DNA of 63,200 bases, the filler included, from Hausera hauseri (Eukaryota): assembly GCA_046269625.1 (NCBI GenBank). It is 11 parts of 11 records of this genome, joined end to end, with 100 filler letters (N's around TTAATTAATTAA, not from the genome) between each part and the next. Parts side by side here need not be neighbours in the genome. Positions count along the whole stretch, not along the records: positions 33,373 to 37,885 come from JBJURY010546453.1; 10 more parts are not named here. One strand, 5' to 3'. The position numbers and the translations under genes are program-made. The first letter of the stretch is position 1; each line of letters opens with the position of its first letter. Shown piece by piece: positions 4,134 to 52,339 of the stretch. Under the pieces are notes generated by a model that did not search any database, had not been told where the DNA came from, and was given only the letters and a program-made list of their open reading frames with translations.

Positions 4134-4182
4134 TTGTGAGGATATAATTGATAACAGAAGTTCTGAATTTAAATCAGATACA

Positions 4183-22615: not shown

Positions 22616-23591
22616 TTTCTTCAGACACTATTTCTTCTGTATCGGAATAACGTTCTATGAGAAATGCAGCTTTCTGATAAAAATAAATGGCTTTACTCCA
22701 TCTACTATTTTGTGTTAGCCTTTCAGCATATTCCATGGCTAATATCCAATCACCTTGTAATGCACAGTACCAAAAAAGTTCCCAATAACAATTACCACGG
22801 AGGTTTTTCCACTGATTCTGATAGTTTATTCTCGTTTCATAACCAACAATAGCTTCATCAATTCTGCCACACATTAAATCAATTCTTCCAATAAATAGCT
22901 CAAAAAATGCCCGCTTTTGATATTTAGCAAGACAAGGTGCAATTAATAGTTTTGCTTCGATAATCTGCTCTATGAATGGAAAGAAACCTATAACACCAAT
23001 GAACCAGTGATAGGATAATAACATTAATGATGCTAATAGTTGTCTAAGACCATTTTCAAGTACAGTTGTTTTGTTCATCTCATTTAATCCGAAATCCTTA
23101 TTCCTTTTAAACCCAATAAATTCCAATAGTTTTAAATTCCGTGTTGGAACCATCGAAATCATTAAATGGAATGTTCCAACACCTAAACTAATGCCACTTT
23201 CAAAGGTGACCTTTGAAAATTCACTGTCCCATTTTTCAATTTTTAATATATTCCAACAAGTCTCGTAGGTTTTGTAACATTCTCTGATTCTTATTCCACC
23301 TTTAATTAAGGCTAAAAGATTTTCGTCTTTAACAAAAGTAAGGAATGCTTTTTGTAAAAGACATTCAGTATAACATAGCTCTGCATGAGATTGTTCATCT
23401 GTAACCTTTGAATTTTCATCTAACTGCGATGACTCCGAATGAAGTTTAAATGATTCAGAAATACGGTTTTTTTCGATTTTTCTGACGCAGATTAAGACAC
23501 GTTTTCACAGCGTTAGAAACTTCTTGAATTCGTTCCGTTTCCATGTTAATAACAGTTTGTAAATAGTTGACAGTGGAATGTCCTAGAGAGT
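22616..23591 (-). pseudogene. TTC39: TTC39/IML2-family TPR protein fragment
   Basis: HAELCYTECLLQKAFLTFVKDENLLALIKGG, FESGISLGVGTFHLMIS, LKLLEFIGF, CYWELFW, SRWSKAIYFYQKAA. Intronless; disrupted near 23400-23480. Confidence 0.9.
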
Positions 23592-24562
23592 NNNNNNNNN
23601 NNNNNNNNNNNNNNNNNNNNNNNNNNNNNNNNNNNTTAATTAATTAANNNNNNNNNNNNNNNNNNNNNNNNNNNNNNNNNNNNNNNNNNNNCTTCCAGAA
23701 ACCGGACTGAGATTACTCGACCGTCAATTAATAGTCCTTTTGTGTTTATTTGAACAAAATTGTTCTTTGGGTTTTCAGTTATACTGGTGATATTTTCTTC
23801 CAGCATCCGCTTTACTGGGTCGACGGATTGGAGCATTTCATTGGGTTTTATCCCATGATGCTTGTTCCAAGCAGGGATAACTACTTGAAATTGTGGCTTT
23901 ATTTTGTATATTTTAGATAATTTCGGTGAATACAATCGATAGGTAAGGTTATAAGTATGTCAGAAAACCGTACTGCAACATTGCATTTGCTCTCCAGTCT
24001 CGAAATTACAATTCCTTGTTTCTTTTGTCATTATATCATCTAGGGCAATTTGAAGTCTTCCAACATTGTGGTGTGGTCTTTGTACCTTTAATCCAACGCA
24101 TGTGGAGTTGCGAATAATAATGAATTTTGACTGATTGTAACAACGTAATTCCTTCTTGTCTTTGGATTTCTTCTAATGTTGGTATCTTTTCCGTTTTATT
24201 AACCTCTCGTTTGGATCCACTTTTCTGCGCTCCGTATACATTTTTAGTGTAGATCCGTCGTGCCACCATTTAGTTTGTGCTCTCGGAATACAAGAAGTAA
24301 TTAACGATAATGATAAAACTATCTTCGCATACGGTATGTGTCTGGTGATAATCGACGAGGTCTTGTTTTCTCGTGGTCTTAAATTGTAATGTTTAGCTGG
24401 CCTTACTACTACTACTCTTTTAACTACTCTATGAATTGATACAACTTCCTCTTTTCCATTTTTATTGACATAAACCGTGGTTGGTGTTGTACGGATTGTT
24501 TATGATTGGTTTAGTCGTGTGAGTTTTATCGACTTAGATCTTCTCTAATTTCAATCACCAAA

Positions 24563-25746
24563 TGTTTTTACCAATACATAAACACTTTACTATTTTTTAA
24601 CGTGAGTTCGGGGCGGTTTGGTAACTTGTACCCAGCACCTGTATCGTTTTATAATTTATAAAAATAAGCCTCGATAAATACCTCTTGTCAATGCTATGCC
24701 TCTCGTCTCATAAGATATGCTCAATATCATCGGCCGGTAGTTTAACCTCTAGCAACTTATGTATTTACTTATGATTTACTTTAACCATTATTCTAGGATT
24801 GTTTTCTTCTTTTATCATCGGTTCATATGCAATTGATCAAATATTCAAACTTGTTATCCTTCTATAAGTTAATCCTTACCCTCATCGTTGGGAAGCTCTT
24901 TCAGTTCTTTAGGTAGTTAACCTGTAGGAAATCGTGTCTCGGTCACTCTAATGTCCGCGTTCGATTATATTTTAAGGGTGTATGGCCATTATAGATGGAT
25001 CCACTGCTTTGTTTATCAAATAAATTACCATTGTAACCGTTCACAAACAGTATCTAAATACTTTATGTTTATTATACTCGTAGAACCTTATCAAGTTTAA
25101 TTTATCCGCAAACAGATCTTTAATTATTATTCGTTATTCATAGATTAGTTTTACTTGAAGACGCCACACGCTTTACCTTTATAATGCTATATATATATAT
25201 ATATATATAATAGTTAAAAGGTCGCTTTGTATTAAAGTAATCGGCGTCGAGGGCATACCAACAAACCATCTTAACTTCTCTTCAACACTGCAGACCATCG
25301 TTCGCGAATCGGTTCAGTAACATTAACACGCTAATCAGATCAGTCTTCCAGGTCATCGAATACTTATCGGCACCAGTTCTTTATAGTTCTTTCGACTCTT
25401 TACAGATTTCCGCACGAAGACCAAATATGCATCGAAGCAACAGGTCGCGATCTATTTTGAATCTTTAGAACATCGGTCAACGAACTTTGTCGACGGTCCA
25501 AAGCGTAACTCATCAACATGGGCGTCCCACACACTGTATTCAATCATACTTCTCGTTCGACTCTGTAGTACCCATTGATTCATTAAATTCTTTTCTCGTA
25601 GTATCTTTCTCGCATCGTTGAAAATTGACAATGAGGTCCATCTTGGCTCCATTTAACCCGTTAGACATAAACATCTCTCCGACCCAATAATCACTCTGCC
25701 AACAAGATCTGTCCAATTTGATTCAATAAACATGTATTATGTTACA
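24563..25746 (-). mobile_element. Putative 5' LTR (~1.18 kb) of an AT-rich Gypsy element; decayed internal sequence continues to 23692
   Basis: Minus strand starts TGTAAC and ends ..AAACA, followed by TTTGGTGA (PBS-like). Contains (TA)n at ~25188-25209. No partner LTR in the contig. Confidence 0.5.
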
Positions 25747-26271
25747 AAATATACATGATAGAAATGTAAAAGGCGGAATTTATTTCACTACGATACTTTA
25801 AAAATTAAATTAATCATTACCTAAATTTTCTTCTTCCCGCTGATATTTGCATGATCATTAAGGCAACTGTCAATTGTGATTTGTATATTTTTTGTTAAAC
25901 TGTTTGATCGAGGTTCAAATTCACGCTTTAAATTTAGAATAGTTTCGGACTTATCTTGAATTTCGAATTGTAAGGCATTTATTGACTTTTGTAACATTTC
26001 CTTTTTAAAGACAAAATTCCTCTCCTTAATTTTGAACACGCCTTCCTCTGACTTCAGTTTCCAGTTCAAACAGCAAGTTCTGACTGGTAGAACTCTCCAT
26101 ATAATTTCCGATTACCGCAAAATAAATAAAATAATGATTACGGAATATTTATGCAGGGCAAAACCTTTCAAAAAAAATTTTTTTACAAAATTTTCTCAAC
26201 TATAATTTTTTAAGAACATGATTCAAGTTTTATGATTTTCGTATTAGTTCATTACGAGCCAAAAAGTAGAA

Positions 26272-26460
26272 ATGTTTTTGTGTAGAATGGAGGGAAATTT
26301 AGAGGAATTGTTGAAATTTCACCAGCTATCGTTTCTTGATCTTATAGACATTTTAGCCCAGATTCTCGAAGCAGAAGTGTACATGAATAAGAAATGTATT
26401 TGCAAAAATGTTCCCTATCAAATTTTCCTTTCAAAAATAGTTTGGAAAAATAATTTTTAA
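26272..26460 (+). pseudogene. Possible protein kinase subdomain V-VIa fragment
   Basis: GNLEELLK..LSFLDLIDILAQILEAEVYMNKKCI resembles kinase helix E. No catalytic motifs. Confidence 0.4.
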
Positions 26461-26499
26461 AATAGGAATTTTTTTGGAATATAGTAATTTCCCGTTGTT

Positions 26500-28983
26500 A
26501 AAACGTTTGGACGGAATGGTTGGTTTTGGCTATCTGGGAAACAAAATTCCACGTGCATTCAGATCGAGGTGGAATGTTTTGTCTGCTCGGTAGAGTTTTT
26601 CGCGTCAAAGCTGACAACGAAATGCGAACACAATAGTGTTGTGGCACATGTAAATTCCGTAATGGGACAACGGTTATGGAATGACTTGCTAACCGTGTCA
26701 GATTCGAACCGATGTCTGATTAATTATACAGCGAGTTTGTTTCATACGCCATGGTAGAAAGCATTTTGTGCTCTCGATTATGCATAGAAAACACGTTTTT
26801 TGGTAGTGCTAGAGTGTGTGTCGATTTGGCACGTGATTGAAATTGTTGTACACGTTGCATGGTTTCATGCAGCGCACTCGTTGCCTATTAAAAATGGCAT
26901 GAGTGAATGCCGGTATTGGCACTGTGGGTTCGCTCCCCACCTGTTTTGTTGCAGCGTTTGCGCTGCGTGCGACCAGGCATTTAAGTGAATGGTATCGGGG
27001 TAGGCCGTGTCGATAGGTTTTGTGTTAAGCGCTTGGCGAAGTAATGGCATTACAAAGGGGTTGTGCACGATGCAAATTCGTAGTAAGACAACGGTTCTAA
27101 CCGTGTCAAATTACAAATTGTTGGGTTTATCAGGGAGCTTCTAATGAGTCGCCTGGTTGTGTTTGGCGTGTCCGTCGAGTATAAAAGGCGGTATTAGTGA
27201 GTGTCGATTCGACACTGTGGGTTTGATCCCCACCTGCTTTGATGCGACGTGCATGCTGCATGCAATCGGACATTCGCTGTTTCGTTACGGTAGGACTTCA
27301 GTGAAGTCGGGGTATCTCTGATGACTTTTGGTGCGACTTGATACCGGTGCGGCAGCGGTTTAATTGCGTATCGTTGTTCGTTCCGTTTCCGGAAGTATGG
27401 GCGTTGGGGTAATATTTGTTTCAGTTTGGACCGGGGTTGGGTCATAGGCTACTGTTGTGTCTATATTGAATGGACCAATTTTCTCGTAGTTTTGTCGGAG
27501 TTTGTCTGTTTCTGACATGCTTGGTATGCTTTGTTCTATAGGATCTTCCGTGTGGAATCATGATAGCCGAATGCTGATTTTACGTTCGACAAGTGGACTA
27601 TATGTTTGTCGTTGTCGCGTATTATTTTGGCGTTGTGCTCAGTGATTTCTATAAGCTTGTAGGGGACCATATAATACGGTTCAAAACCGTGTCTTTGTTT
27701 GCTTTTGAGCCAGACAAAGGATGCGTCTTGTAGGTTCTTGGACATGATTGGTTTCTTGTGATTGTTATGCAACGCAGGGTTCGTGTCTATTGACAGGAAA
27801 TGCTTCCGGGCTTGGTTGAGAGCAGGAATTGAAATTACTTCCTCGTTGCTCACCAGATCTTGTGGGAATGTAAGGTGGGCACCAAATAATAGTTGTGCCG
27901 GAGAGGCATCAGTGCTAGTGTTCGGAGTGTTTCTCCATCTTAATAGCACGATGGGTAGTGCATCCAGCCAATTCTTGTTTTTGTGGCATAGGATTCGTAG
28001 AGATGATTTAGTGTACGATGAAATTGTTCGATCAAACCATTCGCTTGCGGATGGTAGGGTGATGTGTGAATATGCTTTAAACCAAGCGATTTGGTTAATT
28101 GCTTAAACATGGCTGACTAGAATTGGGTACCTTGATCTGTTATAATGTTTTTGGGTACTCCAAACCAAGAAATTCATGTATTGAGCAATACAGCCACAAC
28201 GCTTTGCGTTGTTATTTGGCGGATTGGAATGGCTTCAGGCCATTTCGTTTTCCGGTCCAGAATGGTTATGATATACTGATATCCGTTATATTCGGGAAGT
28301 GGTCCTACTATGTCCGTGTGGATGGTTTCAAACCGTAAGCCAGTAGGATAATGTAAGATTGGGGGTTGTCTAGTCTTGTTGACTTTGTATTGTTGGCAAA
28401 ATGAACATTCTTTTGTCCACCGCTTTATATCGTTTAGCATGCGAGGCCAACAAACTGTACTGCTTAATAAGCGAACTCTGGCTTTCAATCCAGGGTGATT
28501 GATGTTGTGAATGGTGTCAAACGCCTGTTTCCGTAGGCTTGCTGTCAGAATTTGGCGTGGACAACAATTGAGGATGGTATTGTAATGTATTCCATCCTTT
28601 GTGTCGACTGTGTTGAAGAATTTAACATCGTCTTCATGTGGGGGGTTCGATCGGAGAACCTCTTCCGTACAAATGGGGTCAAATGATATTGTCGATATCC
28701 CAGTTCTGGAAGAGAAATCAGAAACTGTGTTATCTTTTCCGGTTATGTGTTCTATCTGGAATGAGAATTCCGACAGAAATGAGATGTGTTGTTCTTGACG
28801 AGGGGATGGGTTCTTCATACTCATCATGTAAATGAGTGGTTTGTGATGCGTACGGATTGCGAACACATTTCCTTCGAGGAAATGTCGGAAGTGTTAGACA
28901 CTGAGAATTATGGCTAGTAATTCTCGGTCAAAGGTTGAATAGCGTTGCTCAGCCGAATTGAATTTGTGGGAAAAGAATTCAAT
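26500..28983 (-). mobile_element. CsRn1-like Gypsy 3' half (RNase H, integrase, Cys/His-rich repeated tail)
   Basis: RYSTFDRELLA, HNINHPG..CSFCQ, HTDIVGP, TDQGTQF, YHPQANG, GPY-like MVPYKL. 28600-28983 is nearly identical to 55160-55538. Confidence 0.92.
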
Positions 28984-29083: not shown

Positions 29084-30826
29084 CTGGTCAAACAACCCTC
29101 CCAGATTACCTCTTATGCACAAAGAACTAGACAGAGGGGATTTTTCAGGACAACATGGCTGAGCTCAAAGCCCTTAAGGTGAATATGAAAGTGGAGGCCA
29201 CAAACATCAATGTTGGTGGCGAAGAATCCAATAGGGCCTTGAAGACCAAAAATAGAACCATATGGGAAATTACCAATATAGCAGAATGGATGCAAGAGGG
29301 GCACGAGAAGCTGATCCGTGAAGCCGGGGAGAGGCAGGATAAGAATAGCGGATGGAATCTGGCAACCATCAAGAGATTGATTGTGTATGTTCACAAGTAC
29401 TCCTCCATGCGGGGTAGTTCATATATTCAGCTCCCTGATTGGATCGCTAACAAAAAGGCATGTGTCAATGTCCATAATAACGACAACATGTGTTTCATGT
29501 ATGCCATTTTATCAAAACTCGTAACGGATCAAAATCATGCTTCACGAGTTTGGCTATATAAGGATGTGTAGCAGGACTATGACTTTCAATGTATCAAGTT
29601 CCGTCCATCCATAGATAAAGTTAAGAAATTTGGAAAAGTCAACAACATGTCCATCAATATCTTTGTATTGGATGAAGAAGATAAATTCTTTCCCCTGCAG
29701 ATATATGATGCTGAAATGGAAGATCATAGGGATCTGCTCCTACTAGACGATGGAGAAAAGAAACATTATGTTTGGATAAAAGACTTTGAGCGGCTAGTCA
29801 AGTTACAAATTACGAAACATCACGGACAAATAGAAATATGTAAACGATGCTTGTCCCATTTCAATGGCGATGTAGCTGTATTGAAGCTGAAAGATCACAT
29901 GATATACTGCAACAACAATTGTTGTATCAGGCCAGATTTTCCCAAGGAGGATTATATTGAAGTCAAGGAGTTCGAGAAGAAGCTCAAGGTCTTAATAGTT
30001 ACCTATTGCGACTTTGAGGCTATTCTGCGTCCAGTTCAGAGTTGCAGTCCTAATACCGAAGACAGCAGCACAAAAGTATACCAATATCATGAGCTCTCAT
30101 TATATTGCATGTATGCCAAAGACTGGGCAGTGAACCATATCTATTCAGGGGTACAAGCAACTTATTTCATTAAACGACTTGAAGATATGGCTCAGAATTG
30201 GAGATATGCAGCAGCATAAGGAGACAATGAGTACGTCGAAGCAACAAGAAGAATGGCGTAAGGCAACAGCATGTTACTTGTGCTCCAAATCATTCAACAA
30301 GGAGAATCATAAAGTCAGAGATCATTAACATTTTACAGGCAAATATCGGGGCACGGCATGCAACAACTGCAATCTACGCTGCAAAACATATATATGTGCC
30401 TGTAGTGTTGCATAATCTCAGTGGCTATGATTCCCATTTCATTGTTCTGGAACTGGTCAGCATTGAAGGAAACATTGATGTGGTCCTTAATAGTGAGGAA
30501 AAATACATCACATTTACCAAGCATGTTGGGAAAATCAGGCTCCGCTTCATAGACTGTTTCCGTTTTATGTCGTCTTCACTTGGCAATTTAGTGAAGAAAC
30601 TACCTGCAGAAGAACTCAAGGAGACGAAGCGGTTCTTTCCCACTGCATTTGACCTCGTCAAGAGAAAAGGCGCGTTTCCCTGTGACTATGTAACTTCTTT
30701 GGAAACACTGAATGAGACCTCATTGCCGACCAAGAAGGACTTTTACAATATCCTCTTTGATTGCGATATCAATGATGCTGACTACAAGCATGTTCAGAAC
30801 GTCTGGCATGCATTTCAATGCCGAAC
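29084..30826 (+). mobile_element. Polinton/Maverick protein-primed DNA polymerase B pseudogene (N-terminal/exonuclease part)
   Basis: GSSYIQLP..KKACVNV, HYVWIKDFERL, YCDFEAIL (ExoI), endonuclease VII-like CYLC..KVRDH.HFTGKYRG.ACNNCNL, HNLSGYDSHF (ExoII), RKGAFPCDY. Confidence 0.93.
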
Positions 30827-33272
30827 CTAATGTTACTGTCTCAATGTTATGAGCCCTAGACTGGATCCTTCGCATCTCTGATATGATGAGTCTGCTCATG
30901 CAGAACTCTCACATAGTCATTGAAGCCTGTCTTCTTGGCTAAGGTCGCCCTTTGAACCCCTTTAGCTCGATTCTTTACTTGGCCACATACATACATACAT
31001 ACATTTTGGACCTAAGAGCTACAAATCTCAAGATGATTGCTCCATTCACCTCGTCTTTGAATTTCCCAAGGACCTTTTTTTGGCTATTGAATATTTGGGA
31101 TGTTCCTTCGGATAATCCGAGGTATCCATGTTATGTGCCAATTGGGCGAAGTCCTTATAAATATCATCTGTATGGATCTGATAGATGAAACTATCAGTAT
31201 CCATATACATCAGCTGCATGGACTCGAACTTGGGGACCATGATGTCATAGTGGAATTTGTACATCAGGGTCTTTGACAGGTCCAGTATTACTATCCCCAT
31301 ATATATGGGCTTTTTGAATTGCAAGGATGTTTTCAGCATATAGATGCTGACCAAGTTCTTAGCATATATGGTGCTGCTGTGGAAGTTGGGATTGACAATG
31401 AGCTTCTTTGCCCGCTTCCACCCAGAGACCACTTCCATGTTGATCCTGTTGCGGATATTTGCCATGGTCTTGCCAAAAACGCTGATGTTGTACAGCTTAA
31501 ATGGGTCCTTCTCAAAGTGGTTCTTGGCATTTATCCGCAACTTCGTATTGAGATCTATGTAGGGCTGCAGCCAGTTGGACTGACTGAACTGCAGGGTTCT
31601 ATGGATCTCAGTAATGTGGAGTCCATTTCTGACCGCCTGCTGTAGAATTATGTAGTGGACTACATATCTGTCCCTAATATCCAGCTGGCAGAGCAGCTTT
31701 CTATGCTTTTCATGCGGCGGAGGCTTGCTCTCAGGGAGGAAAACAGCTGCTCATGCCTTGTGTGTATAGAAGCCGGATATTCCATATCAACTTCCAGTAT
31801 GCATCCCGTATCTCTAGTGGGATCCAGGTCCAGTATAGGGATATTTTCAGGATACTCAACCCACTTAAAGTTATCATATGGCAGTGGGGAGCTCATTGCC
31901 CATCCATATAAGTTGTTGCCATCCAGGTATGATATATATGAGGATTCCTTGGATGTATCATACTGAGTCATATACTTGTTGTTGGCTTTGCTATACCGAT
32001 GAATGGCTGGCATATTCCTCCTCTAATCCCTCTCTCGATCATAAGGAACATATCATAATCCTTAATAACCTGCAGCCTAATACTAGTATTTGGCAGCATA
32101 GCTGCCCAACTCATCCCTGGCGCCGTAAAGAAATGAGCCGGATCCAATGCATGGCTCTTTATCGTAACATCCCTGAAACTCTCAAAGACATATGTCAGAA
32201 GCAGCACATCCGTCTTGAGGTATATGTCGCTGTATTCTCCTAATGTTCGGCACTGGAATGTATGCCAGACGTTCTGAGCATTCTAATAGTCCTCATCATT
32301 GATATCGCAAGCAGAGAGGATATTGTAAAAGACCTTCTTGGCCCTCAATGAGGTCGCATTTAGTATTTTCCATAAAGTTTTATAGTCATAGGAAAACGCG
32401 CCTTTTTTGACGAGGTCAAATGCAGTGGGAATGAACCGCTTCGTCTCCTTGAGTTCTTCTGCAGGGAGGTTGCTTACTAAACTGTCAAGTGAAGATGACA
32501 CGAAACGGAAACTATCTATGAATCAAAGCCTGATTTTCCCAACATGCTTGGTAAATGTGATGTATTTTTCCTCGTTGTTGGAGATCACATCAATGTTTCC
32601 TTCAATGCTGCCCAGTTACCGAACAATGAAATGGGAATCATAGCCACTGACATTATGGAACACTACAGGCACATATGTACATGTTTCGCAACGTAGATTG
32701 CAGTTGTTGCATGATGCGCCCCGATATTTTCCAGTAAAATGGCAATGATTCCTGACTTTATGATTCGTCTTAGTGTATGATTTGGCGCACAAGTAACATG
32801 CTGTTGCCTTGTTTTATTTTTCTTCTTGCTGCTTCGTCATGCCCATTGTATCATTATGCTGCTTCATATCTGCAATCCTATGAGCCATATCTTCAAGTCG
32901 CTTCATGAAATGAGCTGCTGCGCTTGGACCACTGAATTGATATGGTTCACTGTCCATTCCTTTGGCATACATGCAATATGATAAGAACTCATGATATTGG
33001 TATTCCATTGTGCTGCTATGTTGGGGATTAGGACTGAAACTCCGAACTGGACGCAGAATAGCCTCAAAGTCGCAATAGGTAACTATTGGGACATTGATCT
33101 TCTTCTCGAACTCCTTGAATTCAATGTAATCCTCCTTGGGTAATTCTGGCTTAATGCAATAATTGTTATTGCAGTACATCTTGTGCTCTTTCAGCTTCAA
33201 TACACCTACATAGCTTCTAAAATTGGACAAACATCGTTTACATATTTCTATTTGTCCACGATGTTTTGTCAT
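30827..33272 (-). mobile_element. Polinton/Maverick pPolB pseudogene (exonuclease + polymerase domains)
   Basis: YCDFEAIL, YLKTDVLLL, RGIRGG, YLDGNNLYGWAMS (region A), FKLYNISVFGKTM (B), YMDTDS (C), LGKFKDE, ALRSKMY, RAKGV. Frameshifted. Confidence 0.94.
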
Positions 33273-33372: not shown

Positions 33373-33567
33373 GTGAAAGCCTGCAAAAGATTCCGAGGCC
33401 GCCTGGAGGCTGTTATTGCTGCTGATGGGAATTTTTTTGAATGATTCTTGAACATCATCTATAATGAGTAAGTGTTTAAAAAATGATACTAATCCTGTAT
33501 GAAATAAAATAGTTATGGAATATTTTGTGCTTTGCCATTTTAATCCGAAAATAGCGCACGCACCCTG
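33373..33567 (+). mobile_element. 3' end of a Tc1/mariner transposon with right TIR
   Basis: VKACKRFRGRLEAVIAADGNFFE* (33373-33444). Ends ..CACCCTG followed by TA. Confidence 0.85.
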
Positions 33568-33574
33568 TATATAT

Positions 33575-35491
33575 ACCCGAACCGCTCTCATCAATAAATG
33601 AATACATTTCAGCACCAGAAGGATTATTCCTATCAGATTTAGAACCCCTATTCACCTTCGTATCCTATAATTACGTCACCACTCAATCCAATCCGACAAC
33701 TATCAACCAGACCATCATTGACATAACTGTACTAAATTATAAAGGCGAAATTTTACTACAACAACAAATGTATCCCAGACATAAAGTCGTTGACTGGAGA
33801 ACACCTATTACAGGTATAACAGATGATCTCACCCTAAATAAAATCAATAATGAAGACTTCTTACCCCTCATGCAAAATACACTGAAATATAAATTCATTA
33901 TAACAACACAACTCTATCTACTTCTGTGCTCATTGTAACTACCCATTACTCATACCAATGGCTTCTTCGAACGTAGCCATCACCATATCGCTACAAACTT
34001 TCTCACAGATCCAGTACTCATAATTCGTCTAAGTGAACAATTATTACATATTACCACCATTTCTACATATACGTCACCGCTGGTGCAAGCCTACCTACTT
34101 AGACAATTGCATAACCACCTGGAAAACTCATTTTATATTGAAGATACTACTAATCATACAGATCTTAATACCATTGAATTAAATCCCAATTAATTCTGCT
34201 TATTCTCAGATCTTCCATAATGTATAGAATGCCGAGTAATCCTCGATGTAGTGTACCGACTTACACCATTTCTACACATGCTATGTCTGTATTGCATAGA
34301 TTAAGCCCGATCCCAGGCAAATCCAGTGCCATATTGCCCAATCTGTAAATCCGAGATTAAATATTGCATCCAGCACAACGCTTACCCATTCGATGCTCAC
34401 CAATCCCTACTCGACGCTGAAACATTCCCAATCCTAGAACCCACCGATCACATCACATTACTATACTTGGGATGTTTCAACCTCTTTTTCTATTCCGTAT
34501 TTTCAACTTCATACATATTGCTTATGCCGCAAACCCAATAAAATCGCATGTCAGTTTAGTTGTTGTAACGCCGAATATTGCTCCCATTGTTACCAAATGG
34601 AATCCCACCATCAACACTTGATCTGCAGCATATGCTATTTCTGTCCTCAATTCATATATTCCTATTTTTATCACCCTAGAAGAGCCCCCCTCATAGTTAC
34701 TAACACTCCGATTCCTCAGTTACTTCCAACCAGATATTTTCGATTAGAACAACAATCGTCTGACAGAATTGAATTACAAATCCATCGCTTTATCCCGTCC
34801 ACAATAATTAGACCACCACCAATCGTATTCCAAGTACCCTTACCCCATATAAATATTACATTCTTATTGCGTCAACCATCATCAATACCATATCCGCATT
34901 ATGGTCCCGAACAAATTATTAGACCCTTACCTTCATTACTAGTACATACACCTTCAATAACACCAACATAGACTATCTCATAGCCACCACTTCCTTCATC
35001 CTTACAGAAAGATTGGTTCCCAGTTTTAAATAAATGTCCAATCGTCTTTATCTCCAACACAGCCCCACCAGATCTTTCGGCATCATTGTAAAACCTGTTC
35101 TACGATCAACGTCCGACCTATGAGTGCACTATATGCCTTACCGAGCGTATAACTGTGGTCCAATTCTAGTGCAATCATAATTTATGTGCAACCTGCTTCC
35201 ATAAACTTCGATCCCAATTCCTTCAATCGATTGAACAAAGTGACGTGCTCCGATTCCTGCATCTCACGTCCATACTGCCGTCAACCATCAGTTTATTACC
35301 ATTTCTCCTACACTTACGACAAGCGCACCCAACAATTATGCCATTGGATCAACCCAGTGAACGTTACGACATTAAAAATTAAACCCCGAAACCTCAGTTT
35401 CATCGATGTCGGCACCCAGAGTGATGCGGAGGACCAAATCCTTTTCATAGGGGGGATGTTAGGGTTTGTTAATCAACGTATTCATCACTGA
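33575..35491 (+). pseudogene. Accessory region of an LTR element: DEDDh (REX4/ISG20-like) exonuclease-like domain + three RING-like fingers
   Basis: ITVLNYKGEILLQQQMYPRHKVVDWRTPITGITDD (~33720-33830). CIEC..HMLCLYC..CPIC (34221-34350). CLCRK..CCNAEYCSHC..CSIC (~34515-34640). CTIC..CNHNLCATC..PYCRQP (35125-35290). Runs into a PPT. Confidence 0.75.
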
Positions 35492-36674
35492 CCACACCTT
35501 AATTAATCCAAACAGAAAACCAAAAATATCAAACGCAACCAATTCAATTACAGAATATATGATCCTAAACATTAACAATTGATCGTGATCCCAATAAAGA
35601 CTATGACTGTTATATGGTCAATCCAGTATTGTAGACTGACTGTGTATATTATTGTGATAATTAATGGACCTTGTATATATAATTGTCTTGCCTTCTGAAC
35701 TATTGTTGAACCATTTATGGGTGTCCCCACCACTCCTGTTTCATGTATGAACGTTGTTAACCAAAGCGGTTAAATAATAATTAATAAACTTAGAAACTTA
35801 AATTTTAAACTCTAATCAATAAATTCAACAATATAAACCCTAAAACCTATCAATATCTAACAAATGGAAAAGAATACTAACTGAATAAATGTTATTCCAA
35901 CGACCAAAACTAAATCCAATCCTTAATTGGAAGTAACAAATATAATCTATTAAGATACCACATTGCCAGTAAATTAGTCTTAGAAGTAGTAGTTTCTCAC
36001 CTAACTAAAGTCAAACGAAATTAATTTTTTTCTCCTTTACGAAGACCCGAAACGTGGCAACCGGCATAGTGTTTATCTAAACCGCCAGCAAGAACATACC
36101 CATAAGAAACTCTCAAAATTGGTTAGTAAAAATAAATAATAGAAACAAAAACCCGAGCTTCATAATTAAGTAATTCGATAATAAAAATCCATAGAAATAA
36201 ACACAAGTATAAATACCAAGTGAAAAACAAACACAGACACAGAAATTTTCTACTACGCTACCACTACACAAGTAATTCGGTTTTAGAATTAGTGGGTTAT
36301 TTCAGTCGTTCATAGATAAGACATATACGCTAATAGGAGACAAACGATCAGATCCAGAACTTGCAAACCTCTGCACGAATTAGCGTTAAAGTAATTAATC
36401 TTCTCTCAATTAATTAAAATGTTGCGAAGATGGCCCATCAACAGGAGAGTTCCCAGGAGCAATTGGAGAGTGAATCAGTTGGTGAGTAAAGAGCTATTGT
36501 TTTAACACAACCAAAATATATACATAAACTTGTTTACATAAATACTGTTATTATTATTATTAAGATACTAATACCGCTGATTTATTGTATTTATTTTGTA
36601 ATAAATATTAAATAAAAAATTTTAACTGAGGAAGAGTGAAGTGTTTTTGGTTAAAGGGCAATTCGATCGTTACA
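35457..36674 (+). mobile_element. 3' LTR preceded by PPT (AGGGGGGA, 35449-35456)
   Basis: PPT followed by TGTTAG. TATA-like TATAAATA ~36209, AATAAA ~36611, ends GTTACA. An alternative end is CTAACA at 35862. Confidence 0.6.
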
Positions 36675-37985
36675 CTTACCTGATAATATCTTGTACTATT
36701 AATGCTGAAAACGTCAATCATCAAGAGAGACAAGCTAAGTCCACATGTCAGGAATTCATTACTTCGCTGATATCAACGGGAGAAGTAAATACAGTCGAAT
36801 AATTATGGTCATGAAGGAACCACTAAAAAGTGACGATGATGATCAAAAGGCCAGAATTATCCCGATGTCTATTGGTTGTAATTACCTGTCGACCAGAGAT
36901 GCAGCCATCAATGCAATGGATATAATGTTGCGAGGGAGTGGTGTAAACAACAATGCTACGATTATCGTCACGGCTAACGTTCCCTAAGTGTCACAATCTT
37001 GTCATAGATTTTCTGATTAAAGGCGAATTGCCATTAATTAGAATTATGATATGTAGAAATCGAAGGAAAGCTCGGATGATAACACTAAAGTACCCAAGTG
37101 AACAAAGGAGAGATTTATACGGAAGTAAAAGCGAATCCAAGGCAACATATTCGCGGGATCAAATTTGATGAAAGCCGTCATTCGATGGTTGTTGATAATA
37201 GTTCGCCAAAAATGTTACGCCAGAATTGATGTAATGTGCAATGATTCATTGAAACGCCTTGTCTTGCACGTGGTGATAGTTGATAAGTTTGTCATTGAAA
37301 ACCAAATTGATAAAATTGCATTAAACGTTAAAATTGATGAATGAAGTACATGCATTGTCGTCATGGGCCAAATGACCAAGGAACTAATTGTTACCTGAAT
37401 GAAATTGCCTCCAGTACATTATGGATATGAAGACTAATTACTATGCATGGGCAGGACAGCATCAAACAACTGGCTAGTCACCTTGATCCTAAGGAGTCAT
37501 AATCTGCACTGGAGGCTACGTAAATCAGGATAGAGATACTCTCGCTGTCTTGTGATTAGTCACAAGAGATATACATAGGTATAGGTAAATACATAACCAT
37601 GAAACAACGCGTTAGCCCGAAAACAAATGACATTTTACAGGGAATCCCGCTACTGAAATTGTTTAAAGTTAGTCGAATTAGAATCAAATGATATTGAAAT
37701 CATTATTTAACTCATTAATTCTATGAATTCCTACCGTTATTAAGATGGGTATTTCCCTAGAATTAATAAAGCTTTAGACGAAGGTTACTTAGGTAGCTGG
37801 ACCGTTACCGACTTCATCCTTCAGACCATATGACTTTTTCTTTTATATGTTGGTGTATTCAGATGGAGACCCAAATATCATTAACNNNNNNNNNNNNNNN
37901 NNNNNNNNNNNNNNNNNNNNNNNNNNNNNTTAATTAATTAANNNNNNNNNNNNNNNNNNNNNNNNNNNNNNNNNNNNNNNNNNNN

Positions 37986-40900
37986 AAAAGATAGCCGACA
38001 CATTTCTTTTGCTGTATTCACGTTGGAAGCAGCAGTCGTCACTCCAACAAAGCAAAACATTAATTTTTTATATAGACACCGGCGCAGCAATCGCTTTACT
38101 ATCACCAACACGGCACATCCAAAACAATTTCACTTCAAAAAAACAACTGTTCACTGTGTCCGGTGAACCTTTACAAACTTTGGTGTTACTAAATTAACTT
38201 TTACACTTCCAAATTTCTCAAACACATTCACTTGAAAATTTACAGTAGACAATGTACGAACACCTATATTGGGTTCAGACTTTCTGTCCCACTATAATTT
38301 ACTAGTAGACTGCAAACGATGTTCCTTAAAGAGCGGAAATAATTTTAATCAAATTAGCAGCATTTCGGTGACCACCAGGACGATCACTTCCAGCAGGTCA
38401 ATACTAAAGAAGACGACTTCCGATTGAAATTATTTTTATAATTATTCATTATATAAAAATTTTTATTACGGCAACAAATACGATATTGCCAACTGCGTGG
38501 CACCTATTACTGATAGTACAACTACCAACACCACCTTCAATACGAACATGCTGCACCTAATACCACCTTGTCACAACACCTTGTCTACAACTCATACCTC
38601 AACTGCATCCAGTCACGATGCATTGAAACAATCGGATAACTTTTCATCTTTGCCCTCTGACTTACAGCAATATATTTCGTCGTCCTGCACACGTCTGTTT
38701 CAAAAGGACAAATAATTCCGACTCCCGTGCAGCACTCTTCTTAACCACGGAGGCATAAACAACAGCTGTAGGTGCAGTGCTCCATTAATTTAAAAATGGA
38801 TCCCATGAGCCATTAGAATTCGTTTCTCAAAAATTCACGGCTCAAGAGCAAAGATATTCCACCTTTGACAGAGAGCCGCTTGCAATGGTCTTTGCCGTAA
38901 AATGCTTTAAGCATCTGCTAACTGCACGAACCTTTACCATACAAACGGACCCCAAGCCCTTGCTTCAAATTCTGACCATGAAATCGCCTTCTTCACGTCA
39001 GGAGAGGCAAATATCGTATTTGTCCACATTTAATTTTGAAATTAAGCACTTAAACGGAGTCGACAATTCAGTAGTTGACTTTTTGTCCCGATCTGTCAGC
39101 TCGATTGATTTTACACCAAATTACCCTCAATCCAAACTTCAACAAAACCAGACACCTCCTGACATCCTTACATCTTTTACATCGTGTGAAACTATCGACG
39201 GTGTGGTTTTTGACACCTCCAAACCCAATAATTCTAAAGTCATCCTTTTTGAATCGCTTCAAAAAGAAGCATTCAACAACATCCCTTCGTTGCACCATCC
39301 TGGTGCCAAGGCCACTTTTCGACTTTTACAACGCCATGTAGTATGGCCCTCGATGCGCTCTCACGTGCAGGCATGGGTTAGGCAGTGTGTGGCATGCCAA
39401 AAATACAAAGTTACTAAGCACTTAAAGCCACCACTATATCATTTTCCCTTCACGTCTCGTTTGAAATCTGTTCATATTGAACTTGTAGGACCACTACCCT
39501 TAGACAACGGCCATCAGTTTATCCTCACAATGATGGACAGATCCGCGCGATGGCCAGAGGCTGTCCCGCTTCGGAAGACCAACACAAAAACAATTACAGA
39601 CGTTTTCATCCGCACTTGGACCAACAGGTTTGGATCACCTCGCCACATCATTTCGGACCAAGGTACACAGTTCGAATCCAACCTGTTTAAAGCTCTTGTT
39701 AATCGATTAGGAATTAACCACATTCACACGTCACCATATTATCCTCAGTTGAATGGCCTTCTTGAATGCGTTCACCGAACGATGAAAACGTCACTCAAAA
39801 TACTTGCTAAGTCCAATCGACGTAGGACTACATTCCTTTCGTACGTTCTGCTTGGCTGGCGGAACACACAATCTACGTATACAGGTTTTTCACCTGCAAA
39901 AGCATTATTTGGTACTTCTACCAGATCATTATTCTAGCTGGCTGAGCTGGACAACATTCCCATAGACGAAACCATACAAGCGGCCCAGAGACACTTCATT
40001 GCGATCAGCAGACTCATTTTGTAGACTATTACACGGAAATAAACCCAACATACCCGAGGAATTAAATACTGCTAAGTTCGTAGGGATAAAGAATCAGACG
40101 CCGTGTGGTTTTCAACCTCAGTATGTTGGCCCTTAGAAAGTAATTCGCTTACACTCTCACAATATCATCATTTTCAAGGACGAAAAAGAAGTAACAGTAC
40201 ACATCAACAACGCTAAAACGGCTTTCTTCATTGACGATACGTTTCCCATCGAAACCACTTCTCCACCAACATCTTCACGCGATGCGCAGCAGTCCAACAA
40301 TTCACTTTCCATCTCTGTTCAATTCTTTAACCCACTTTCCCCAAAGATTTCTTCTAAGACTTATACTTTAATTTTTTCTGACAATCCATCCCCTTTTTTC
40401 CCATTCCGATCTTGCACCTTCCAGCCTTTTAGCACCTCCCCCATCCCCTGGTGACAACCTGCTTTCTCCTCTTACAAGACCTCCTCCGCCAAACACAACT
40501 TCGAATTCACCAATCTCTCCATCTTCATGCTCTCTTCCTTTTTGTCCCTCTTCGTCGTTTTTCCTCTCTCCCTCTCTCCTTCCTTATCGTCGGCGCTCCT
40601 TTCCTCCCTCTCTCCTCCCACAACGTCTTTTACTCCTTTCATTTCCGCTTCGCAACTTCCTTCTCTCTGTACTCTTAGCCCTATTTCTCTTCCTATCTCT
40701 ACTACTACCTCTGTTTCATCCTCTACTCTTACATTTTCACCTAATACAATTTCAATTTCTATGCAACTTTTCTTCTCTCCTTCTTCATCCGCCACTACAC
40801 CTCTCTTCAGTCCTTTGGCTTCCAACACTCTCTTGAACACCTTCAATCTCCTGTCTCCAACAATCTCTCTTCCTCATTCGCTCTCTTCTTCTATTTATTC

Positions 40901-41162
40901 TGACGCATCTTCGCACGACACAACACTCACAACAAAATCCGAAAAATTATTCCCTAACATCAAACTCCGCAAGCAAACACATCGCATAAAGACAAAACAC
41001 GCAGAGTAACATGTAGCAAGTATAGCAGTGAAAAATCAGTAGAAGGCACCAAACATCTTGTTCACACTAAGACCAACTGACACAGACACTTTTTCGTTTG
41101 GCGATTTTTTCTTTCTATGTTTTACTCTTTATAGTTTTCGCTTTGCCACGGGAGAGGGGTGA
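37986..41162 (+). mobile_element. CsRn1-like Gypsy copy with RT deleted; integrase, S/T/P tail and PPT present
   Basis: PR IDTGAAI ~38070. Jumps at ~38718 from pre-RT to RNase H. ORF 38885-39937 covers RH-integrase. PPT GGGAGAGGGGTGA at 41150-41162. Closely related to 8718-14052. Confidence 0.94.
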
Positions 41163-41837: not shown

Positions 41838-42074
41838 CGATATCTTTTGCTCTTGTTATCTGATTCCATATTTATTCTCATTTTTGTCACCGTTTAATAG
41901 ATAACCTTTTGGGACATGATGGATTTGTGCCGTGTTAAATATGTAAAAAAAATTTGTTTTTAAAAAAAAATTTGTTGTTTTAAAGAAATAAAACAAAGTT
42001 TTTTTGAACACGCTTGAATTAATGTTAAATAATATGATGCGCCATATTTTTATCTGTCTATCAATCTTAATGGT

Positions 42075-44861
42075 TTGGGTCATTTAAAGAAAAAAATTGG
42101 AATATTAAATTTATTAAAAAGAAACAGTCTATCTTGTATTCATGATGATCTTCTGAAAGCCGTTATGTCAATCGATGAAGGTATGTCGCTTTCAGCTGCT
42201 GAGAAACTACACGTCATTCCGTGGGCAACTTTATCAGAACATTGTCATAGCAAATCCGTGAAGAGAAAATCTGAAAATGTTTTGCCTGAAATAGATGAAG
42301 AGCGTATTGCTGAATTTTTGCGTTATGCATGGGTCTGCGGATGGTCATTGGATTTGCCATTAATTAAAACCGTCAGTCCAGCTGGGAATTTTGTCCGACG
42401 TTTCGAAAAGCGTTGGGAACGTGTATTGCCTGAACAAAATGACTATATGATCAATAACGTGCGATATTCAGGAGAAACTAGTGATGCATTCGATGAATTT
42501 TTCCAATTGGTAACAAATTTCTGTGAACAGTACTCATTATAAGATGCTGTCAATCAAATTTGCTACACAGAGGAAATTTTTCCGAATACGTTAGGGAATA
42601 ATTCGGTTGGCCGTATGCGATGTTGGTCTGACGGTGTCATCATGCATGTTGACGATGGGAATTATTCCGTATTGACTTGCGGCAATGCCGATGCATCTTT
42701 CGTTATGCCACCGTTCGTTGTTTACAAAGCGAAAAATCTGCATGCGTCATGGTGCCAAGATGGACCCACTGGTACTCAATATTCCATCAGTCCAACGGGA
42801 TTTGTTGACACGATGCAGTTTGAAAATTGGGTCGCAACTCAACTCATCCCACACAAGAAAGTGCACCACGGCGACAATCCCATTCTTGTCTATCTCGAAA
42901 ATCGTAACAACAATCTCACATTCAACGTTGCATCACTTTGTCTAGAAAACGAAATAATGCTTGTCTGTTTGCCACCGAAATCTAGTCATGTTGTAAAAGT
43001 GTTCGACGCAAATTTTCTTCAACATTTCAGAGCCGTTTGGAAGGGTGTACTGACGGAATTGAAATTTCCAAAAGTGGATAAGAGTAAATTTCCATCTCTT
43101 CTCAAGTTTTTATGGGGGAAAATCAATTTCCAAATGTTGACAAGTGGATTTCGTAACTGCGGCCTGTTTCCTTTAAACAAGGAAATGGCTTTGGAAAGAT
43201 TAGTTACAGCACAGGACCAGTTGAAGTCGTCAATCGACAGTCTGACAAATGATATTCTCAATGGAACGTTGAAGCCGTCGAAACAGTTTATTGATGAAGT
43301 AAAACAGACGAATAAAAGACAAAGGAAAATACCGAGGAAATATTGTGACAGTCCAGTTTTCTCTGTGAAGAAAGAAGCCGCAAGGGAAAATCTAAAACCC
43401 ATCGTTAATCATTCTGCAGATGGCGACAGTGTTTCATCGTCATCGTCAGCAGAAAATCTGAAAGCTGCCATTTACAAAGCCATTGATTCGTCGAATTCCC
43501 ACAGCGCACAGAAACGGCTGAATACAACACACAACAAATCTCAATCAATAGACGATGTCAAAGCCGCAATTATCAAATCGATATCACATTGTGTGCGTCC
43601 AAACAATCCACAATATTCCGATGACAGCAGTATTGATGACAATTCATCAACAGAAAAATTGAAAGCTGCCATTTTAAAAGCCATGACTTCTGGCGAACTG
43701 TGTAATGCCGGCAGTGGAAAGAAACGAATCCAAGTGAAATTCTGTAATGAACTGTCGAATACAACGCAAATGAAAGCACAAATCGGCCGTCCGATTGCAC
43801 TTGATGACAGTAGCAACGTGACGAAATTCAAATCGTCCACGAGCAGATCGATAAATACCGGAAATCAGATCGGTCAGAAAAGACGGAAATCGGTAACCAA
43901 GGAAATGACGTACGACGAATTGATTGAAGAATACGCCAGTTGCAGCAACAGCAGCTGCAATTCGTCGACGGAAAATCTCAAGGCCGCCATTCTCGAATCG
44001 ATGACGCCGTCAGCATCTCGATACCGCACGGACGGGCTGGTCAACGGCGGCGGTCAGAAAAAACGTGTCCAAGTGAAATTCTGTCAAGACGCAGCATCCG
44101 AATGCCAACCGAAGAAACGGATGAAAATGGAGACCGTTCAAAATCGAAAATCAACGAACAATGTTGTCCGCAGTGATTCGTCGTCATCGTCATCAATTGA
44201 TAATTTGCGGGCAGCCATTTTGAACGCAATGACCAAACCGGCAGGCCGTAACGGTCAAAAACCCACAAACGACTCATTGAAATCCAACCCGACGAAGAGC
44301 AAATCCTCTGCAGACAATTCCAGCAAATCACCAACATCGGCACCAGCTGCAGACAATCTGAAAGCCGCCATTCTCAAATCGATGTTTTCATCGTCATTCG
44401 GCGGTGAATTTGCCATCAGGAATCAAACGAAAGATCCATCCGGTGAGGTGTTGGCTCTGGAGGAGCCGTTTGCGGTCGACTCTGATTCTGGCCATCATGA
44501 CACCGTCTGCCGCAGTTTGCCGTGTCCCACAACAAAGAAGACAATTTATTCCGGACCGATTTTGAGTATAACAGAAGATGATTACGTTGTCGTAAAGAAC
44601 GTTTCATCTGGCACCAATCCTCATCCAATTTATCACGTGGGATCTGTGTTGAATAGAGTGGAACAACCAGAATCCGGGTGGAAAATTCAGTGCCTCCAGA
44701 AGTATGATGAGGGGCCGAGTCAGTTCGTTTATCCTCCTCAGAGTCACGTTGCCTTTTATTTGGTCAATGATATCGTTCGGGTTTTGTCTCCACCAAATAT
44801 TTTGAACACAATTTATCAGTTCAATGATGACCTATCGGAGTTTGATAAATATATGAGATGA
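42075..44861 (+). CDS. pogo/CENP-B-type transposase-derived protein (HTH_psq + degenerate DDE_1 + repeated helical motif); one in-frame TAA at 42540-42542
   Basis: ORFs 42075-42542 and 42615-44861 share a frame. AVMSIDEGMSLSAAEKLHVIPWATL, SVLTCGNADASFVMPPFVVYK, CLPPKSSHVVKVFD, SGFRNCGLFPLN. True start uncertain. Confidence 0.82.
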
Positions 44862-45651: not shown

Positions 45652-48600
45652 CCTACATATTACCGACCCTTCCATTGACAGCATAATACAAAAATACTTT
45701 AATGAACATGCTATCGGAACTCAAAAGCCGTCTGATTTCCTTACAACCGCAATTTCTCAACTAAGTTCCTTAGGCGTCACTCCTGCAAACAATGCCGATC
45801 TTCTTCGTCGGTATTTTCTTTCTTCCTTACCCACCTCTATCAGAGCGTTGCTTACTGTCCTAGACGATTTAACGGCACTCGAGAAACTAGCCTTACTGGC
45901 AGATAGAAGTTTCGGCAACCTACAGTCAAATAGCTCACAACCAGTAGCTGCAGCAACCGCTTATAAGCCATCACACGCAGATAACACTTTATTTTCACAA
46001 CAACTGAATATGATGCAGAAATAATTTGACACACTTCAACAAGCAATTTCTGCGATTACAGCCCAACTTAGTGATTTATCTGTGCCTCGAAGAAGTGAAA
46101 ACCGTGTTTCGCGCAATCGTAGTCTTTCCAGGCATTCCTTTCGATCCAAATCTTGAGACGGAAGAATAATTTGTTTTTATCATAACAAATTCCACAGAGA
46201 CGCAAGAAAATGTCTTTTGGGCTGTCGATTTTACGACGAACGCAATGCAGTAGACAGCCAAACCTGCATTTATCACACAAAGTATCAGTCCAAGGCTAGG
46301 TTGTCTGTGTTAGAATGCAAATATTATAAAAAGAATTTTAGTTTTTTTCCATCTTCGCCTCCTAGCTCTTATCATTCCTCTTCTTTTTCCCAACAAAGCT
46401 CAAAAAACTAACAACACCGCCAGATGCCATGGCACATTCTGGTATATGCAATGCCGTTGAATGTTCTGGGCGTCTTAACACCGCCTCTGTAGTTTTTCTG
46501 TTAAAAGCTGCATTGCTCCACAACAATGCTTCACACATAGACTTTTCCATCGATTCAGGAGCTGCCTTTTCGTTCCTTCCCTTGTCCATCACTCATATAT
46601 CCACTATAATTTCATCTCCACCACTTTTTACTGCCAGTGGTCAACCGTTGTACATCGTAGGTACCAAGGAGCTGATTTTCACATTCGCCAACTTGCCAGA
46701 TAAGTTTGTCTGGAAATTCCACGTGGCTAATATTAAATCCCCCATAAACGGCTGAGATTTTCTCGCCGCACATGATCTGCTAGTTCACTGTAAGTATCGC
46801 TGTCTTCTGCGCAGAAACTCCGTCGTGGATGCTAAGAAATATCTACCAAACAGCCCAGTAAAACTCTTGTTTTCGGCTGTAAACGCGCGTGTGAATTTGA
46901 AAACTTATTTGTGGGTTAATAACGGTACATTTAGCACTTCATCCATTTCTTCCATCACATCAAACGTATCTAAGTGGGTTTTAAAACAACCGAGTAAACG
47001 GTTGTTGATGGTGTCAGTTGCGGTTGTTCTTCATCAATACCATCCACTGTCGCTTCTAATGATATGCCTGAATCATTATCATAGCTGGATTCCAATCTGA
47101 AATCCTATATCACAACTTCTTGTTTGTGCGCACTCAGAAAGGACGTCAACATCAAGCCGCTTTCTACAACTTATAACCACATAGACACCAAACACCAAAA
47201 ACCTATCAGACAAAAGGTCAGACCACTGTCACATCGTAGGCGAAAAGCCGTTGAATCAGAGTTCAAAGAACTAGAAAAGGCCGGCATCAATCGAAGATCA
47301 AAATCACCACGGGCTTCACCATTGCATGTAGTAACAAAGAAAGATGGCACTTACAGACCATGTGGTGACTATCGGCAGTTAAACAACCTAACAGCCCTGG
47401 ATGCTTATCCTTTACCTCTCATAAAGGACATCCTGCACAGTCTTACCAATACTAACATGTACTCCACAATTGACTTGCGTAAAGCTTATCATTAAATTCC
47501 GGTTTCACCTGATAATATTCCCAAAATTGCTGTTATTTCTCCATTTGGCTTCAATGAATATATCTTTATGCCGTTTGTTTTATGCAGCACTTCCCAAACT
47601 TTTTGACGACGCATAGATACCGTTCTATCATGCATTGACTTTGTTCATCCATACATTGATGATATATTAGTTGCCTCCACATCTGGCAAACAACATCAAG
47701 AACACATCCGTATTATATTTCGCAGACTACATCATAGCAATTTGCAATTCAATTTCTCCAAGTGTCATTTCTTTCAAAAAAGTGTTAATTTCCTAGGCCA
47801 CGTGATCACTCCCCGCGGCCACTCTCCACAACCGGATCGAATACAGCAATTAAAAAACATAACGCTACCAACGAATACCACGGATATAAGGAGTTTCTTA
47901 GGCACCCCTACTTCATCCACAAATGCGTACCACATTGTTCTGAGCTTACAGCATCTTTCGCGCATTTATCATCCGGAAAAAAGAGGCAATTAATCCACTG
48001 GACTCCTGGTTTAGTCACCAAATTCTGTCACCTACGCGAAGGCCTAAAAACCGTCGAAATACTATCCTATCCAAAGCCCGACGCAGATCTTATGCTTACC
48101 ACCGATGTCTCTGCCACAGCTACCGGTGCAGTATTACACCAGATATCTAACGGCGTCGACAAACCATTAGAATTTTACTCCAGGAAACTCACACAACCCG
48201 AAAGCCGTTACTCAACATTTGACCGTGAGTTTCTCGCCATAGTTCTGGCAGTAAAACATTTCAAACATCTACTTCTCTCTATCCATTTGTTATTCAAATT
48301 GACCACAAGCCCCTCCTGCATATCATGTCGTTAAAACAGCCATTACCGAGGCAAGAACGACATATATAATACCTGTGTACATTCAGTTTTGTTTTAGAAT
48401 ACATTTCAGACACAGACAATTTGGTAGCAGATTTTCTATCGAGGTCGGTTAGCTCCATTACAGTTAAGCCGATATTCTCATCCGAAGTCTTAAAGGCAAA
48501 TCAACCGTCTGCTGACTTCCTTAGCCTTTTCAAATCCTTCGAAATCATCGGTGGTATTGCTTTTGATACGTCGAATTCAGGTAATAAAAGATCACTCTAA

Positions 48601-52328: not shown

Positions 52329-52339
52329 AATACCGCACA

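Follow-up and report, generated by a model that had tools for sequence, protein, structure and literature searches.

A degenerate pair of genes, for an ISG20/REX4-like pseudo-exonuclease and a triple zinc-finger protein, near the 3' terminus of a high-copy repeat of Hausera hauseri

Introduction

Which proteins does a high-copy repeat of Hausera hauseri (Eukaryota; assembly GCA_046269625.1) encode beside its 3' end, and what would they do for the element? The question is raised by one contig (33373-37885) of the window, the whole stretch of 63,200 nucleotides (nt) analysed here, which consists of 11 contigs and N linkers. A preliminary description of positions 33575-35491 saw in it the 3' region of a long terminal repeat (LTR) element, with an exonuclease-like domain followed by three RING-like fingers. 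To our knowledge, counter-defence genes are known for few animal retrotransposons, and ISG20 is an antiviral RNA nuclease whose family restricts retroviruses in mammals. We find that 33570-35462 is a degenerate copy of two genes, A and then B, lying 5' of a purine tract and of a putative LTR that starts with TG (35457-~35845). Gene A has the fold of an exonuclease and gene B carries three zinc-finger motifs; a stop codon shared with intact relatives separates them, both show signs of selection in those relatives, and the pair belongs to a repeat and ends at the tract and TG. The copy in the window can make neither protein whole. Our favoured explanation, which we regard as moderately probable, is that a two-gene accessory cassette has decayed where a high-copy LTR family, likely of the Ty3/gypsy kind, has its 3' end, gene A being a shield of RNA ends and gene B a RING E3 ligase.

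Gene A: a nuclease fold without its catalytic residues

Read in the frame of 33555 with stops as X, the window copy of gene A gives an exonuclease-like segment with FVSYNYV in the ExoI position, an internal stop at 33936 and a conserved terminal stop at 34191-34193. When residues 1-305 of this frame were used as query, three proteins matched among 1748 candidates, namely P0004-6, of 349-357 amino acids (aa) and 58-66% identical. All three end at the 34191 stop and none runs on into a finger, and the fingers, which lie in three reading frames in the window copy beyond that stop, form a separate called protein in the relatives; a nuclease joined to the fingers, proposed at first, is thus not supported. 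The relatives also possess about 150 extra N-terminal residues, a cupin-type barrel that has no counterpart in the window copy and was absent from the earlier account.

The catalytic D, E, D, H and D are all lost, five of five, both in P0004-6 and in the window copy. Since the three close relatives lack these residues too, the evidence supports their loss as a trait of the lineage and not as decay of this copy, so the lost acidic residues of ExoI noticed in the preliminary description were correctly read. Identity within P0004-6 is 69-75% in each of the two domains, compared with 21-42% in the linker, and this difference indicates, at the level of aligned proteins, that a catalytically dead gene A was kept under selection in the intact relatives.

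A structure model of P0004 (mean predicted local distance difference test, pLDDT, 77) superimposes on ISG20 (1wlj) with Z 18.6 (root-mean-square deviation 3.3 over 159 residues), the next family reaching 15.0. The profile of the family alignment described below, called A3, reaches E 1.4e-27 with ISG20L2 and E 4e-17 with ISG20. A profile made from 11 catalytically intact relatives only detects the window copy with a score of 46 bits (E 2e-15 when 10 sequences were searched) and had no further match in any of the window's six frames; Pfam gave no match for the nuclease segment of the window copy. Among DnaQ-like folds gene A is thus modelled as closest to ISG20/REX4, for P0004 and for the family, with the active-member profile linking the window copy to them, and the REX4/ISG20-like DEDDh segment of the preliminary description is borne out.

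The N-terminal part of P0004 resembles cupins and 2-oxoglutarate (2OG) oxygenases of the prolyl hydroxylase/Ofd2 kind equally well (Z 8.9-9.7), its BFVD matches are viral cupins and plant-virus replicases, and Atlas cupin matches for the family member P0007 have template-modelling scores (TM) of 0.48-0.57. The models point to a double-stranded beta-helix fold, with cupin and 2OG-oxygenase tied. No Pfam 2OG-FeII_Oxy match was found in the 27 proteins scanned, and the HxD...H iron triad is not visible by eye in A3.

Residues R53 and M14 of ISG20 contact the ribose 2'-OH (PMC10085690; papers are cited throughout from excerpts of their text). The R53 position corresponds to the Arg of DWRT, which is Arg in the window copy and in all of P0004-6, but in only one of the 18 other aligned members.

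These members come from a profile search of 1.84 billion representatives, which returned 26 hits; A3 has 21 rows, 18 of the hits together with P0004-6. Left out were P0008, P0014, P0023, P0026 and P0029 (cellular REX4-like), P0028 (bacterial DnaQ-like) and P0020 (a short repeat match). The N-terminal domain is present wholly or partly in 16 of the 21 rows. D-E-(D/E)-H-D is retained in 11 rows, the catalytic residues are lost in nine and one row is truncated. Active members have His in ExoIII and the best fold matches of gene A are DEDDh proteins, unlike the DEDDy type. In a tree of 26 exonuclease domains the label active or dead changes five times, only two of the changes being forced by strong branches and one of those two falling inside a cellular-type protein; the tree has four long branches, and the inactive members lie on long branches. 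The tree suggests that catalytic loss may have occurred repeatedly, with a single loss among the element proteins as the alternative. As an observation apart, P0008 (733 aa) seems by eye to hold four tandem REX4-like domains, with catalytic residues only in the second.

Gene B: three fingers in one gene

In the window copy the frame of 34438 holds fingers 2 and 3, except for the final Cys pair of finger 3, which falls in a third frame near 35270. The gene is broken by stops at 34218, 34302, 34969, 34981, 35089 and 35167, and its frame shifts around 34460 and 35250 and again at the purine tract. A query of residues 12-258 of the second frame found two proteins among 1145 candidates, P0032 (425 aa, a cluster of three) and P0033 (383 aa). 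Because P0032 maps colinearly over 34224-35455 through three frames (tblastn, 58-63% identity), the three fingers are, by this alignment, one gene in intact copies. The contigs of P0004 and P0032 are both 19467 nt long and those of P0005 and P0033 both 3286 nt, and for this reason genes A and B likely stand side by side in the relatives as well.

The C3HC4 ligand spacing is present in fingers 1 and 3 of P0032 and P0033. In the window copy Pfam detects finger 3 as zf-C3HC4_3 (E 4.8e-5) and finger 1 at E 0.015-0.6, below the curated cut-offs. Finger 1 of P0032 matches zf-C3HC4 (E 1.8e-4, best over 9-41, with 21.8 bits where the cut-off is 21), finger 1 aligns weakly with BRCA1 (E 0.05), and finger 3 of P0033 matches RING_XB3-XBAT31 (E 1.9e-8) and zf-C3HC4_3 (E 1e-4), both below cut-off. 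The called proteins of the relatives begin downstream of the first finger 1 ligand, which is visible only in the window copy; in that copy one ligand position has changed in finger 1 and one in finger 2. Finger 2 has the 2-11 spacing of finger 3, to which it is 32% identical over 34 aa, with CCN replacing CxH. The three RING-spaced Cys/His clusters described earlier have RING-HC spacing in fingers 1 and 3 and are atypical in finger 2. A relaxed half-RING pattern gave two matches in 34191-35460, fingers 1 and 3, none in 500 shuffles and none elsewhere in the non-satellite window.

Cys columns are conserved in 22 of 23 cases between the gene B relatives, against 217 of 360 other residues (Fisher p 2.6e-4), a bias indicating that gene B too has been under selection in intact relatives. 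Ile, Pro and a following Arg are typical of RINGs that bind E2 enzymes; finger 3 retains them, and fingers 1 and 2 do so only partly. Near the end of gene B both relatives have STQT and the window copy GTQS, which resemble sites of the kind bound by the dynein light chain LC8.

The element: boundary, abundance and gypsy linkage

P0032 and P0033 both end in RGEKC, which calls for codons made of purines and then TG; in the alignment this end falls on the tract at 35449-35456 with the TG at 35457. The boundary at a polypurine tract plus TG proposed earlier thus stands, with the coding end at 35462 and not at 35491. The putative LTR has a terminal inverted match of 11/13, equalled by 18 of 1000 shuffles; its best-placed end, at 35845, is AA, not CA.

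In one run (X1), possibly of the source sample, 5981 contigs fell on the stretch, 366 of them at >=99% identity and 2856 at <90%, most being <95% identical. Summed depth in this run, which is not a copy number, is 1378-10776 over 33524-35486 and 262-605 over 35487-35788, drops to 16 in the next bin and stays at 2-16 beyond. Given this contrast between the genes and the sequence beyond 35788, the cassette is part of a large, diverged, high-copy repeat family, the end of which lies near 35800-35850.

Linkage to gypsy comes from a locus named L001, the one confirmed among 19 pattern matches, where the gene A relative P0016 starts 70 nt 3' of a 3184-codon polyprotein with zf-CCHC, a Monjiviricetes-type fusion glycoprotein, protease, reverse transcriptase, RNase H and integrase in gypsy order. 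Loci of the close relatives were confirmed neither in JGI metagenomes (A2), nor in viral contigs (A2, A4, A6, P0037, A7), nor in prokaryote genomes (A6, A7). The link with gag-pol supposed earlier has thus been seen for a distant gene A relative only, with no gag-pol seen for the window's own family; we consider gypsy linkage likely, being observed for the gene A family and extrapolated to the element family of the window. L001 itself (17-9568) is a single gag-env-pol frame with about 400 residues after the integrase, ending in a hydrophobic segment. It has a weak ubiquitin-like signal before env (UBX E 0.0015); BCL2-like and dUTPase-like stretches seen there by eye were unconfirmed.

Table 1. 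Features of the cassette contig, in positions of the window
Feature	Position	Strand	Basis
Foreign repeat in place of the 5' part of gene A	33373..33569	+	Gene A relatives match only from 33570
Gene A, 3' 205 codons: linker and ISG20/REX4-fold pseudo-exonuclease	33570..34193	+	66% identity over 205 aa to P0004
Possible splice acceptor (CAG after a pyrimidine run)	34194..34209	+	Putative; between gene A stop and finger 1
Gene B, broken triple zinc-finger gene	34210..35462	+	tblastn with P0032/P0033, three colinear segments
Finger 1, RING-HC spacing	34221..34346	+	Pfam zf-C3HC4 on P0032
Finger 2, RING-like spacing, CCN for CxH	34516..34644	+	Cys invariant in P0032/P0033
Finger 3, RING-HC spacing, 27-residue loop, over two frames	35125..35284	+	Pfam RING models on P0033
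Polypurine tract	35449..35456	+	Sequence; RGEKC ends of intact gene B relatives
Putative 3' LTR	35457..35845	+	Terminal inverted match and depth drop; 3' end alternatives 35862 or ~36054

What the cassette may do

In the favoured explanation the gene A protein would bind RNA ends without cutting them, and would so shield the RNA of the element or compete with 3' nucleases of the host. The gene B protein would be a RING E3 ubiquitin ligase, finger 3 being the most plausible basis of this activity, and would remove host restriction factors. RNA binding and ligase activity are proposals, and a role of the cassette in counter-defence is quite conceivable, though we stop somewhat short of calling it probable. 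The anti-silencing role suggested in the preliminary description is likewise a proposal. Several points weigh against the explanation. The ISG20 positions M14 and D90 are lost in gene A, and for that reason RNA binding by its product can only be proposed. Most RING scores are below the Pfam cut-offs, finger 2 has no Pfam match in the window copy and no Pfam or PDB match overall, and the structure model of gene B is unusable (pLDDT 27.5). On the side of the element, genomic context was observed for one of the 21 aligned gene A family members, P0016, a distant relative (blastp 37-53 bits to P0004-6), and L001 ends about 160 nt after it, so a RING gene could not show there. The contig 33373-37885 has no gag or pol, its copy being 5'-truncated, and since it excludes the 5' part of the element it offers no second LTR or target-site duplication to compare. 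The splice acceptor considered below is weak evidence as well, because the strand is pyrimidine-rich.

The same anatomy may belong to proteins that serve the element's own replication, in RNA export, packaging, particle assembly or the turnover of its own proteins. Housekeeping accessory open reading frames (ORFs) do exist, such as CERV of Cer1 in RNA export (PMC10309623), and the 11 of 21 family members with an active site could trim the RNA of the element. Three conserved fingers are not readily explained in this way, and inactive members on long branches fit a conflict, although this pattern is not specific to conflict. We regard own replication as possible, if on the doubtful side.

How gene B would be expressed bears on whether there are two proteins at all. 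Finger 1, 10 codons past the stop, shares the frame of gene A, no in-frame ATG intervenes in the window copy, and P0032 and P0033 have their called starts within finger 1; a complete finger 1 therefore needs splicing or read-through. No RNA data set came up as containing the stretch. An acceptor ending at 34209 has a pyrimidine score of 10/12, the joint best among 45 YAG sites in 33575-35457 and tied with two others. We give a spliced subgenomic RNA using this acceptor about an even chance as the source of gene B, and find read-through of the gene A stop distinctly doubtful, as we do the use of other starts. If read-through did occur, A and B might form one protein of ~790 aa (cupin, pseudo-nuclease and three fingers), an RNA-targeted E3 ligase close to what the preliminary description pictured, for which the frame, the missing ATG and the called starts all speak. 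That the stop is kept in all three gene A relatives argues against it, as do the absence of an unusually stable RNA structure downstream of the stop (z -0.57) and the acceptor-like site in the gap, and such a fusion is in our judgement unlikely.

Returning to the two-gene LTR cassette, its assignment to gypsy has to be set against a non-autonomous or non-gypsy mobile element (large retrotransposon derivative (LARD)-like, BEL/Pao, Penelope-like or derived from a DNA virus). For this one may cite that pol was not seen for the window's own element family, that the Atlas look-alikes of the RINGs come mostly from large DNA viruses (scores <=0.90), and that the DEDDy genes of bdelloids are common to LTR and Penelope-like elements (PMC5408684). 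The boundary of tract and TG common to two other contigs, the terminal inverted match of the putative LTR and the position of P0016 behind a gypsy pol speak against it, and make it very unlikely. A captured host gene fragment in neutral decay, or a host pseudogene, would suit the seven internal stops and several frame changes of the window copy but is hardly credible beside relatives with intact reading frames at 58-67% identity, conservation by domain and by Cys, and a high copy number.

A bolder extension of the favoured explanation can also be drawn: gene A would be an undescribed gene, widespread as an accessory of animal gypsy elements, in which a cupin barrel is fused to a captured ISG20/REX4 nuclease; in several lineages it would have changed from an enzyme to a decoy that binds RNA ends and, in the family of the window copy, paired with the triple-RING protein or perhaps fused to it through stop read-through, would direct RNA-guided ubiquitination of silencing or antiviral proteins of the host. 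We consider it speculative and rather improbable; if true, such a device would be the retrotransposon counterpart of lentiviral accessory genes. What the locus offers in any case is a repeat family that appears to keep two non-essential genes under selection, one of them derived from nucleases that in mammals act against retroviruses. Because one two-domain protein occurs naturally in active and in dead form, the step from nuclease to RNA binder is directly testable, and the activity of an element-encoded RING ligase can likewise be tested directly with intact natural proteins.

Other sequences in the window

The foreign repeat found where the 5' part of gene A would stand has a summed depth of 1162 in the bin 33373-33523, no Pfam match on a 23-codon piece and no second copy in the window. 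It ends in CACCCTGTA before a TA and resembles the 3' end of a putative DNA transposon of the Tc1/mariner type. On the other side of the putative LTR, the near single-copy flank at 36040-36480 has TGGCAACC, which looks like a primer site, at 36055, then a leader rich in A and a short ORF that runs up to a donor-like GTGAGT. Beyond it, sequence that resembles decayed coding DNA continues to ~37560. The whole may be what is left of the 5' end of a different old element, and it has no library match. Reading 36055-37885 as primer site and gag of the cassette family was rejected, the sequence being near single-copy, with no useful Pfam match and no match to the L001 polyprotein.

The repeats surrounding the cassette contig seem to be of a kind found in animal genomes. 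Decayed gypsy pol regions are found at 1-4182, 8718-12400, 23692-28983, 37986-41160, 45652-49950 and 50051-55538, three of which share a Ser/Thr/Pro-rich open frame after the integrase. Assigning these fragments to the element of the cassette was rejected, as there is no match to gene A or B. Two inverted, decayed DNA polymerase B2-like copies, 85% identical, occupy 29084-33272 (Pfam DNA_pol_B_2 E 2e-5), a region we take to be Polinton-like. A DDE_1 (pogo-like) ORF of 772 codons is located in 42033-44861, with a further open stretch upstream; a 41-nt repeat occurs six times in its long C-terminal tail, and it looks domesticated. Long intron-free frames on the minus strand at 20572-23504 resemble, as judged by eye, adjacent TTC39-like and dynactin-like proteins. 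The whole contig at 55639-63200 is a diverged satellite of 47-48-nt units. No tRNA was found, and the one Rfam match is sub-threshold and was taken as chance.

Comparison with known systems

No cupin-ISG20 or triple-RING accessory gene was found reported for LTR elements in the literature consulted, and subscription papers, Repbase or supplements may hold such annotation. A close precedent is ORF3 of the bdelloid LTR retrotransposons Juno and Vesta, RNase D-like DEDDy exonucleases with intact residues (DEED) (Rodriguez et al. 2017, PMC5408684; the case is also cited in PMC6338049). It shares with gene A the extra 3' ORF, the DnaQ-like 3'-5' exonuclease fold and an animal gypsy-type element. 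Unlike it, gene A is of the ISG20/REX4 DEDDh type with a cupin-type barrel and is dead in the P0004-6 clade, so the bdelloid precedent raised earlier holds for extra exonuclease ORFs and differs in being DEDDy, catalytically intact and of another branch; the main text of that paper, as excerpted, does not contain the word RING.

Human ISG20, ISG20L2 and REX4 have the fold in common with gene A, which retains the R53 position. In contrast to them, gene A is only about 20% identical, has lost the five catalytic residues, has an extra N-terminal barrel and is borne by a repeat.

In planarian Burro env lies between gag and pol, with ubiquitin- and apoptosis-related extras (PMC6431247), and GAG-ENV-POL elements are reported in nematodes, bryozoans and flatworms (PMC13524379). 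The single-ORF layout and weak ubiquitin-like signal of L001 are like those of Burro and the GAG-ENV-POL errantiviruses, a likeness that concerns L001; neither env nor pol was seen for the window's own family. The excerpted accounts of these elements, unlike the window cassette, have no exonuclease, cupin or triple-RING gene after pol, and the excerpted main text of PMC13524379 contains none of the terms exonuclease, RING, cupin and AlkB.

Orchids, too, have a gypsy element whose accessory domain is a double-stranded beta-helix: its AlkB/2OG-dependent dioxygenase (2-ODD) ORF is an active N6-methyladenosine (m6A) demethylase, proposed to act against host control at the RNA level (PMC9289625). 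The orchid protein has a Pfam match; the barrel of gene A has none, nor a triad visible in A3.

Finally, Maelstrom and EXD1 are inactive RNA binders of the DEDD fold (PMC5408684), and Exuperantia is matched by the P0004 model at Z 10.5. These three offer a precedent for a dead DEDD fold as an RNA-binding module, as gene A may be; unlike gene A, they are encoded by the host and belong to other DEDD branches.
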